A stretch of DNA of 64,000 bases from Pyrinomonadaceae bacterium (GTDB taxonomy: Bacteria; Acidobacteriota; Blastocatellia; Pyrinomonadales; Pyrinomonadaceae). Shown one piece after another: positions 41,409-42,386 of the stretch. A model generated the notes under the pieces. That model was not told the DNA's origin. It made no database searches and saw only the letters and a program-made list of their open reading frames with translations. The stretch spans positions 192,013-256,012 of the forward strand of contig DATFGP010000022.1 of NCBI GenBank assembly GCA_035249365.1, given 5' to 3'. Position numbers and translations under genes: made by a program. Each line of letters opens with the position of its first letter. The stretch's first letter is position 1.

Positions 41409-42386
41409 ATGCAACCACCGTCGAACTTGAATAACAATAAGCCGGGTAAAGATAATGAATCGTTATTAAAGAAAGTCCTCAGATTACTCGGCATTCTAGG
41501 CTTGGGCGTTTTAGGTAGTTGGCTGGCTGGTAAAATTCCAACCTCAGACCACTTGCCTAATTTGCAGCGGTTTCAGATGGCTATTCCTTGGATATTGGCT
41601 ATCTTTTTCTTTATAACAACGTCGCTCTTGTATTTGAAATCGCGCGGGCATAAAGAGCTGGAAGGCAGAAAGAACGCACTGGAAAGCAGAAAAACCGAAT
41701 TAGATGCGGAATGCAAACGCTTACAAGAAGATTACTCGTCATTAGAGATCGAAGTCAAAAGATTACAGGAGGAGAACTTAAAGCTTCAAATCGAACTGCC
41801 ACGGGAGTGGGTAGGCATTCAGGAGCGGACTGGACTTCAAGGTTACGATCCTGACTTGAGTGATAGCCCGTTTCATCCTGAAAGGTGCTTGCCGACAATC
41901 GGTAAGAGTTTAAGTTTTATGGGTCACGGCGCAAGCAAATGGACGGCGCATGTCCCACCGCTGGAAGATATGCTTGAAAGAATCCGGGGTGAAAGAAACA
42001 AGAATAACTCAAAGGCAGTAGTAAAATTTCTTATTCTTAATCCGGCTCACGAAAAGAATACAAAACAACAGCGCCGCAGAATTGCAGTCAGTTTGATGAA
42101 TCTCAAATTTTTGCAGAATGAATTTCCGGAAGTGTTAATGATAAGGGTTTTCAATCACCTCCCACAGTTCAGATTAATTTTTATTGATGGTAAAAAACTC
42201 GTTGTTGGACATTACGGGGGCGAACAAAGAAAAGAGAGCGACAATACTCCTTTGCATGTTTATAGTATCGAAGGTGAATGGAGTTTCTTTCATCCTTTCG
42301 AGGAACATTTCAATACTGAATGGGCTGCCGCCAAGGTTCCAGAGTGGACGGAAATCGACACCATTGCAAACCAACCGGTCAACTGA
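41409..42386 (+). CDS. Hypothetical protein: 2 TM helices, coiled coil and an uncharacterised C-terminal globular domain
   Basis: TM segments 'VLRLLGILGLGVLGSWLAG' and 'IPWILAIFFFITTSLLYL'. Coiled coil 'ELDAECKRLQEDYSSLEIEVKRLQEENLKLQIEL'. C-domain 'VKFLILNP...FRLIFIDGKKLVVGHYGG...PLHVY'. An alternative TTG start exists at 41370. Confidence 0.55.
   Translation: MQPPSNLNNNKPGKDNESLLKKVLRLLGILGLGVLGSWLAGKIPTSDHLPNLQRFQMAIPWILAIFFFITTSLLYLKSRGHKELEGRKNALESRKTELDAECKRLQEDYSSLEIEVKRLQEENLKLQIELPREWVGIQERTGLQGYDPDLSDSPFHPERCLPTIGKSLSFMGHGASKWTAHVPPLEDMLERIRGERNKNNSKAVVKFLILNPAHEKNTKQQRRRIAVSLMNLKFLQNEFPEVLMIRVFNHLPQFRLIFIDGKKLVVGHYGGEQRKESDNTPLHVYSIEGEWSFFHPFEEHFNTEWAAAKVPEWTEIDTIANQPVN

Follow-up and report, generated by a model that had tools for sequence, protein, structure and literature searches.

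A candidate ligand-gated membrane sensor-effector with a phospholipase D-like domain, encoded between Nudix and SelD-like genes in the complex I operon of a Pyrinomonadaceae bacterium

Second-messenger-gated transmembrane (TM) effectors, among them Cap15, 2TM-SAVED, PycTM and Cam1, belong to the CBASS, Pycsar and type III CRISPR systems. A gene here called X, which lies within the complex I (nuo) operon in a 64-kb stretch of Pyrinomonadaceae bacterium DNA (the window), encodes a protein that resembles these effectors: it likewise has short N-terminal TM helices and a probable cytoplasmic sensor, sibling sensors in its family are fused to TIR, patatin and SIR2 parts, and nucleotide-metabolising enzymes adjoin. 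Whereas the sensors of CBASS, Pycsar and type III CRISPR are SAVED, CARF, cNMP-binding or STING domains, that of X is predicted to have the fold of phospholipase D (PLD), and X is partnered by a dikinase of SelD or PEP-synthase-like type, in some loci accompanied by an NMNAT-like enzyme, rather than by a CD-NTase, a cyclase or Cas10. We see about an even chance that X is the ligand-gated membrane sensor-effector of a three-gene small-molecule module (Nudix / X / SelD-like) of the conflict-system type, by which are meant abortive-infection-like systems directed against phages or other mobile genetic elements; within a sensor-effector reading, immunity is somewhat more likely than a physiological role. 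The overall logic of signal maker, signal clearer and sensor-effector is known already and this sensor fold with this enzyme chemistry is not, so that novelty would be categorical only if the messenger proves to be dikinase-made or selenium-based.

The C-terminal domain of X also invites comparison with described PLD-like proteins. The effector-binding domain of TrmB and TrmBL2, with its PLD-like N-subdomain (PDB 2f5t, 3qph, 5bpd), has no detectable sequence similarity to X; TrmB binds sugars with a second, beta-barrel subdomain that the X domain lacks, and its output is a winged helix-turn-helix, whereas that of X would be its TM helices. The closest structural analogue is the DUF1669 pseudo-PLD domain of FAM83 (PDB 5lzk, 4urj), at about 13% sequence identity, although FAM83 is eukaryotic and its dead PLD domain binds a protein (CK1), not a metabolite. 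By comparison with the HKD enzymes (Nuc, NucT, Zucchini, SauUSI and BfiI), the histidine of the motif is absent or variable in X, the lysine has become an invariant arginine, and GSxN has become (G/S)(H/R)Y. Finally, the actinobacterial XRE-type regulators of PF19319 have a homologous C-terminal domain, preceded by a helix-turn-helix (HTH) where X has two TM helices and a leucine zipper.

Architecture, relatives and predicted fold of X

The translation of X is 100% identical to an NCBI protein from a metagenome-assembled genome (MAG), 'hypothetical protein VJ842_08665, Pyrinomonadaceae bacterium'. The original prediction, made from the sequence, had described two TM helices, a heptad coiled coil of about 60 amino acids (aa) and a C-terminal domain of about 190 aa, in a protein encoded between a Nudix hydrolase and SelD, and most of this outline holds. 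Both helices are recovered by hydropathy (Table 1), the neighbours match PF00293 and TIGR00476, and all four of the quoted motifs fall within the C-terminal domain (VKFLILNP at residue 205, FRLIFIDGKKLVVGHYGG at 254, PLHVYSIEG at 281 and FEEHFNTEW at 297). The heptads are likewise present, with leucine at every seventh residue in a heptad scan (84, 91, 98, 105, 112, 119 and 126), but these seven heptads cover about 50 aa and not 60. Enrichment of lysine and arginine ahead of the first helix and behind the second suggests that both termini of the protein are cytoplasmic. The Pfam scan detects no HTH in the N-terminus, where the two TM helices and the zipper stand instead, and full-length X gives coiled-coil noise only against Pfam, NCBIfam and PADLOC, in Pfam over residues 85-130 of the zipper stretch. 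The zipper is variable among relatives, being present in L004 and L006 and absent from P0002.

The family is visible only through exhaustive HMMER searching. A word-indexed search with X returned X itself and one relative, P0002, which is 45% identical across the C-terminal 177 aa and has two TM helices, and a word-indexed search with a 38-sequence profile returned six proteins only; by contrast, a profile built from the C-terminal domains of X and P0002 retrieved 390 cluster representatives at E<=1e-3, 165 of them at E<=1e-10, with the X domain C-terminal in every one. Peptide-pattern scans recovered a single locus each from GTDB genomes and JGI metagenomes and none from IMG/VR; tblastn found no X-domain match in phage records and only two plasmids, both from Rhodococcus. 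The original prediction had also noted, as a weak likeness, the DUF5919 module of actinobacterial XRE regulators, and had proposed an HMM search and a fold comparison as checks. Full-length X has no DUF5919 match at E<=1; the C-terminal domain scanned alone has DUF5919 (PF19319) as its sole Pfam match (E 0.13, 12.5 bits), below the gathering threshold of 23.5 bits. PF19319 is nevertheless matched by 44 of 148 scanned homologues, with a best E of 6e-8, and two relatives score above the threshold, P0128 at 29.7 bits and P0140 at 27.6 bits. There is thus a solid sequence-based case, by way of these intermediates, for regarding the X domain as a divergent branch of the DUF5919 superfamily: the suggestion was sound as to the superfamily, even though the window domain itself stays below threshold and the XRE architecture with its HTH does not apply. 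No function of DUF5919 and no publication on it turned up in a literature search covering few subscription-journal papers.

Structure prediction with an alignment gives the X domain a fold with a confidence (pLDDT) of 94.4, the best structural matches of which are non-catalytic members of the PLD superfamily, and in this modelled sense the domain has a PLD fold. A profile search of PDB sequences yielded no meaningful match and no PLD, and there is therefore no solved structure in the X-domain family. The catalytic motif of PLD enzymes is HxK(x4)D(x6)GSxN. In 136 aligned domains of the X family the corresponding register, deduced from spacing and predicted strands and not from residue-level superposition, reads (variable)xR(x4)D(x6)(G/S)(H/R)Y, and the beta-hairpin of the window protein reads Q-F-R-L-I-F-I-D-(x6)-G-H-Y. 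The position of the nucleophilic histidine is occupied by T, S, C, N, Q, I, H or A across the family and by glutamine (residue 253) in X; Arg255, at the position of the HKD lysine, is invariant (136/136), and the serine and asparagine of GSxN are replaced. Other residues are conserved almost without exception (Tyr269 and Trp305 in 134 domains each, Lys177 in 133, Trp178 and Gly172 in 132 each), the full near-invariant set being G172, K177, W178, P212, P252, R255, D260, Y269, P281 and W305. From this pattern we infer that the X domain is a catalytically dead PLD; given that the histidine is lost while arginine, lysine and the tyrosine and tryptophan residues are kept, it would bind a ligand rather than cleave it, and the conserved basic and aromatic residues probably receive a phosphate-bearing compound.

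A recurrent gene module and its wider family

The genes on either side of X are themselves informative. The Nudix box of the upstream hydrolase is intact (REFREETGF; consensus REUxEExGU), and its nearest solved relatives are ADP-ribose (ADPR) pyrophosphatases (1mk1, E 1.8e-19). The downstream protein passes the SelD family TIGR00476 (240.8 bits, cut-off 125) and falls below the cut-off of NF002098 (182.5 bits against 299); among solved structures Aquifex SelD comes nearest (2yye, E 2e-42), the cysteine and the lysine being aligned, and the N-terminal HGGCSKK of the window protein lines up with SSGCAAK of 2yye and GGCGCK of canonical SelDs. The catalytic Cys/Lys loop and the metal-binding aspartates are thus kept. 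With SelD it shares the PurM fold, the glycine-rich Cys/Lys loop and the score above the TIGR00476 cut-off; it differs in forming a distinct clade (HGGCS[KR]K), in being 35-37% identical to the Firmicutes SelDs compared, and in that the examined loci of the clade contain X-type or STAND genes and no recognised selenium-utilisation genes. At one such locus (L010, 1690-7038) a SelD-like protein of this clade (50% identity, HGGCSRK) directly follows a 1419-aa NB-ARC/WD40 protein of STAND type, which was considered as a carrier of the X domain and rejected, since a direct test detected no X domain in it.

An upstream Nudix gene, a two-TM X and a downstream SelD-like gene recur together in L001/2, L003, L004/5, L007, L008/9 and L012. 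The short contig that carries P0002 holds the C-terminal part of a homologue of the window Nudix, X, and the N-terminal end of a SelD-like protein with HGGCSKK, and SelD-like relatives 48-83% identical to the window protein sit downstream of X-type genes. Because the same order turns up in at least seven contexts unrelated to one another, Nudix / 2TM-X / SelD-like is a conserved module and not a chance juxtaposition. The original prediction had called the placement of X between Nudix and SelD unexplained and had pointed to the gene neighbourhoods of homologues; these bear out the recurring order, and the placement is now explained in part, as that of a conserved three-gene module.

Within the module the three genes have not evolved at one pace. 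Between the window and L003 the Nudix and SelD-like proteins are 78% and 79% identical and nuoE, nuoF and nuoG 76, 85 and 73%, whereas X is 42% identical; in L006 the SelD-like protein is 61% and nuoG 62% identical to those of the window. Across these three loci the Nudix and SelD-like proteins show roughly the same divergence as the nuo genes, which points to vertical inheritance of the block with the nuo operon. X has changed much faster than its partners, and its 42% identity means that the sensor-effector gene has either diverged very rapidly or, alone of the three, undergone allele replacement. At L006 (4358-6942) X is intact (4933-5892), while the Nudix is reduced to a 52-aa open reading frame (ORF) and the SelD-like gene is split across frames (5889-6074 and 5995-6939), a state that represents either decay of the module or an assembly error. 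The guanine-cytosine (GC) content of the module is 3-17 points under that of its flanks in all loci examined (window, L003, L004, L006, L007, L008 and L012), even in apparently old ones.

Beyond the three-gene form, the X domain is found on a wide range of partners. Two or three TM helices are the commonest N-termini among the 150 best representatives, a pair of helices being the most frequent arrangement; the others include TIR_2/TIR, CAP12/Pycsar-TIR, DUF4062, SIR2_2, Patatin, Metallophos, PNP_UDP_1, PRTase-CE, EAD11 and BTAD/GerE. TIR, SIR2, CapV-like patatin and Pycsar-type TIR are hallmark suicide effectors, and the PADLOC models that recognise the fused parts are those of CBASS phospholipase effectors for patatin (E 1e-70), of ThsB/PycTIR for TIR and of ThsA/LmuA for SIR2. 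One sensor domain is thus carried on interchangeable effectors, as in CBASS, Pycsar, Thoeris and type III CRISPR. All six fusion-type or distant X proteins that were looked up (Table 1) are encoded in compact clusters, on one strand, together with enzymes of phosphotransfer or nucleotide metabolism, and certain X-family loci are surrounded by integrase, insertion sequence (IS), TIR and kinase genes. Downstream of the X proteins (483-498 aa) of the two Rhodococcus plasmids come in turn genes for an adenylyltransferase, for a PEP/pyruvate-binding dikinase and for a DHH or radical SAM protein, and the operon of the Thermoanaerobaculia MAG looks, from its gene content, like a complete nucleotide-building pathway placed beside the sensor. 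The three lineages of SelD that partner X are mutually at most 34% identical, and the GGCxxK Cys/Lys motif is retained in each. In the loci surveyed the X domain almost always has a dikinase of SelD or PEP-synthase type encoded next to it. What these loci have in common is a 'water dikinase' (either SelD or a PEP-synthase-like enzyme), often an NMNAT-like adenylyltransferase, and a cleaver of pyrophosphate bonds (Nudix or DHH); water dikinases convert ATP to AMP, Pi and a phosphorylated product. Among the partner genes of the X-family operons examined no known class of signal synthase (CD-NTase, cyclase, TIR or Cas10) was seen.

Because a single C-terminal domain is combined with interchangeable outputs, transcription factors included, and with dedicated small-molecule enzymes, the X domain is best read as a ligand sensor, much like the SAVED, CARF and cNMP-binding domains of CBASS, type III CRISPR and Pycsar. 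In the mechanism that we propose, the TM hairpin would anchor X in the inner membrane with the zipper and the PLD-fold domain facing the cytoplasm, and the zipper would dimerise or oligomerise the protein; PLD domains with a single HKD motif normally act as dimers. The dead PLD domain would bind, without cleaving, a phosphate-bearing ligand through the invariant arginine, the lysine of the glycine-rich loop and tyrosine and tryptophan residues, the SelD-like dikinase would make or prime that ligand, and the ADPR-pyrophosphatase-like Nudix would hydrolyse it, so that the system stays off or is reset. Occupancy would then rearrange the X oligomer such that its TM helices permeabilise or depolarise the membrane. 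The ligand is most likely an ADP-linked or a (seleno/thio)phosphate-derived metabolite: the likeness of the Nudix to ADP-sugar pyrophosphatases and the adenylyltransferase of sibling systems suggest that it may be ADP-linked, and for the SelD branch selenophosphate or thiophosphate is a possible source. More tentatively, and with a substantial minority chance of being right, DUF5919-type dead-PLD domains at large would be the receptors of an unrecognised class of second messengers, in which the signal is produced by a water dikinase (SelD or PEP-synthase/rifampicin-phosphotransferase-like), often with an NMNAT-like adenylyltransferase, is removed by an enzyme of Nudix or DHH-pyrophosphatase-like type, and is read out by TM helices that form pores, by NADases (TIR or SIR2), by patatin lipase or by transcription factors, the messenger of the SelD branch, the window included, being made from selenophosphate or thiophosphate.

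Genomic setting within the nuo operon

In the window the three genes form a low-GC block (0.43-0.45, against 0.59-0.61 for nuoE, nuoF and nuoG) embedded in the nuoB-N operon. All genes are on the same strand, with gaps of 25, 155, 23 and 12 nt along the series nuoF/Nudix/X/SelD-like/nuoG, and promoter and terminator scans of the block gave matches at chance level; given these tight gaps and that no terminator was found, expression of nuoG-N requires transcription to pass through the block. An Rfam scan of the block was without a match. A recent mobile island was considered and rejected on account of the nuo-like divergence at a shared site and of the lack of flanking repeats and of any tRNA: the flanks of the block hold no repeats, the 64-kb window holds no tRNA, and no integrase-type gene lies in or adjoins the block, whose direct flanks are nuoF and nuoG. 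Elsewhere (L004/5, L007 and L008/9) the module lies beside urocanase, UvrA-like or NTP-transferase genes.

Some further features of the region were recorded. A thioredoxin-like Redoxin/AhpC-TSA gene of 200 aa (52223-52825, +) lies between nuoM (50607-52175) and nuoN (52887-54464) as a second non-nuo gene inside the complex I operon of the window, and the nuo operon of L006 also holds TonB_C, SIMPL, SnoaL_2 and Thx inserts. The gene nuoI (2x[4Fe-4S]) is absent between nuoH (45884-46975) and nuoJ (~47050-47730), that is, from 45884-47730, and L003 likewise has no nuoI there, NADHdh being followed directly by Oxidored_q3. Two ORFs on the minus strand, 13946-14680 (244 aa) and 58409-59764 (451 aa), have no Pfam match at E<=1e-4 and lie in or near local GC dips.

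Table 1. Features of the window and of loci encoding X-family proteins, in the coordinates of each sequence
Feature or locus	Position	Strand	Description
Low-GC three-gene block	40698..43477	+	Between nuoF (39372-40697) and nuoG (43478-45787)
Nudix hydrolase	40723..41253	+	ADP-ribose/ADP-sugar pyrophosphatase type; PF00293, E 4.4e-16
X	41409..42386	+	325 aa, ATG start; two TM helices, leucine zipper and predicted inactive PLD-fold (DUF5919-like) domain
TM helix 1 of X	41475..41531	+	Residues 23-41; Kyte-Doolittle 19-residue window >=1.6
TM helix 2 of X	41577..41636	+	Residues 57-76; Kyte-Doolittle maximum 2.06
Leucine zipper of X	41649..41798	+	Residues 81-130; heptad scan
C-terminal domain of X	41808..42383	+	Residues 134-325 (192 aa); predicted PLD fold without the catalytic His
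SelD-like 'selenide, water dikinase'	42410..43465	+	PurM/AIRS fold; PF00586 (AIRS) and PF02769 (AIRS_C)
L003	X at 5138-5974		Nudix / X / SelD-like between nuoF and nuoG, as in the window
L006			Between nuoF and nuoG; Nudix decayed, SelD-like apparently frameshifted, X intact
L004/L005			Full module beside urocanase gene
L007			Full module
L008/L009			Full module
L012			Full module
TIR-X (L013)			Then canonical SelD (NF002098 437 bits, cut-off 299), then DHH/DHHA2 Mn-pyrophosphatase-like; among integrase and IS genes
SIR2-X			Then SelD-like
Patatin-X (CapV-like)			Then DHH/DHHA2, NMNAT-like adenylyltransferase, PPDK_N/PEP-utilizer (PEP-synthase-like) dikinase
Metallophos-X			Then NMNAT-like, then dikinase
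2TM-X, distant subtype			Then NMNAT-like, dikinase, DHH; beside RadC/ArdC
NDT-like-X (nucleoside-deoxyribosyltransferase-like), Thermoanaerobaculia MAG (L011)	127-4342		Preceded by NMNAT-like, CMP-kinase-like (400 aa), PRTase, GMP-kinase-like
Rhodococcus plasmid pRJH2 (L021), NZ_CP050180.1	4323-9137		X N-terminus without assignment
Rhodococcus plasmid pKNR (L022), NC_012523.1	~105424-110332		X N-terminus BTAD-like (weak BTAD match)

Alternatives and implications

The same sensor logic could operate in a housekeeping or stress circuit, in which X would be a membrane receptor for a respiration-, redox- or selenium/sulfur-linked metabolite, would be co-transcribed with complex I and would modulate, without lethal effect, the membrane or the respiratory chain; to this serious rival we assign an unlikely but appreciable chance. 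The position of the block at the nuoF/nuoG junction of the window, L003 and L006, with a nuo-like divergence that speaks of long vertical retention, fits such a circuit, as do the tight gaps and the read-through needed for nuoG-N, the presence of a second redox gene, the Redoxin between nuoM and nuoN, in the same operon, and the transcription-factor fusions of the family (BTAD and GerE, with XRE by Pfam's definition of DUF5919). It accounts poorly for the unrelated contexts of the module in other lineages, for the fusions to TIR, SIR2, CapV-like patatin and Pycsar-type TIR, for the far faster evolution of X relative to its partners and for the GC of the block, which has remained low. Some observations weigh, conversely, on the reading of X as a sensor-effector of the conflict type. 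Vertical stability at the nuoF/nuoG junction in three lineages (nuoG 62-73%) is atypical of defence islands and hints at a physiological role; the intact X of L006 may function without its partners; and, by analogy with the protein-protein binding of FAM83, the X domain need not bind a small molecule at all. X and the SelD-like protein have no match in PADLOC-DB v2.0.0, and hence no independent support for defence comes from that catalogue; this negative also fits novelty of the module. The window Nudix has a weak generic match to PDC-S07 (26.7 bits) and the partner enzymes of sibling systems have none; matches to effector models are confined to the fused TIR, SIR2 and patatin parts. The literature search likewise brought up no link of SelD or dikinases with defence systems. 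Further, the neighbourhoods surveyed were some 15 hand-picked loci, not a statistical census, and for the ligand, its binding and toxicity the case is a computational one.

A role for X as an accessory of selenium metabolism, as a membrane-tethered carrier of selenophosphate or a regulator of a SelD-dependent trait with the Nudix handling a nucleotide by-product, is in our estimation quite improbable. It would make sense of the Cys/Lys loop, the metal-binding aspartates and the TIGR00476 score of the SelD-like protein, of the partner in L013, which by NCBIfam is a bona fide SelD (437 bits against 299), and of the capacity of PLD active sites to bind tetrahedral oxyanions, Nuc for example having been solved with tungstate. 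It does not explain why many X loci are free of SelD and have a PEP-synthase-like dikinase and an NMNAT-like enzyme instead, or why NADases and lipases are fused to the X domain, which would be senseless in a carrier; moreover, the 64-kb window contains no tRNA-Sec, and selA, selB, selU and yqeB/C were not recognised among the window ORFs examined. That X might be an active membrane-anchored enzyme of the PLD family, whether a phospholipase, a nuclease or a phosphodiesterase, is very unlikely given that the position of the histidine is hypervariable in 136 homologues (and Gln in the window), that the serine and asparagine of GSxN are replaced, that the best structural matches are non-catalytic, and that the profile search of the PDB finds no PLD by sequence. 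Least credible, to the point of being negligible, is the idea that X is spurious, or is decaying within a remnant of horizontally acquired DNA: X is a near-orphan in the word-indexed search (two hits), is low in GC and has no above-threshold Pfam match, yet its 390 homologous representatives, its fold at a pLDDT of 94.4 and its invariant residues rule out a spurious ORF, with synteny and the intact flanking partners arguing in the same direction.

If X is indeed a ligand-gated sensor-effector, the implications reach beyond this operon. DUF5919 would gain a first functional hypothesis, that of a ligand-sensing, catalytically dead PLD fold, and the bacterial systems that pair a signal synthase with a sensor-effector would gain a sensor fold and an enzyme chemistry that are both new to them, the latter being that of the dikinases, SelD included. 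Likewise, 'orphan' SelD paralogues would acquire a use apart from selenoproteins and selenouridine, in signalling or immunity. The three-gene module of the window and the four-gene versions on the plasmids pKNR and pRJH2 of cultured Rhodococcus would be tractable cases. Finally, a module maintained stably in the complex I operon would represent an unusual instance of a conflict-type module that either has become domesticated or is parked in an essential operon.

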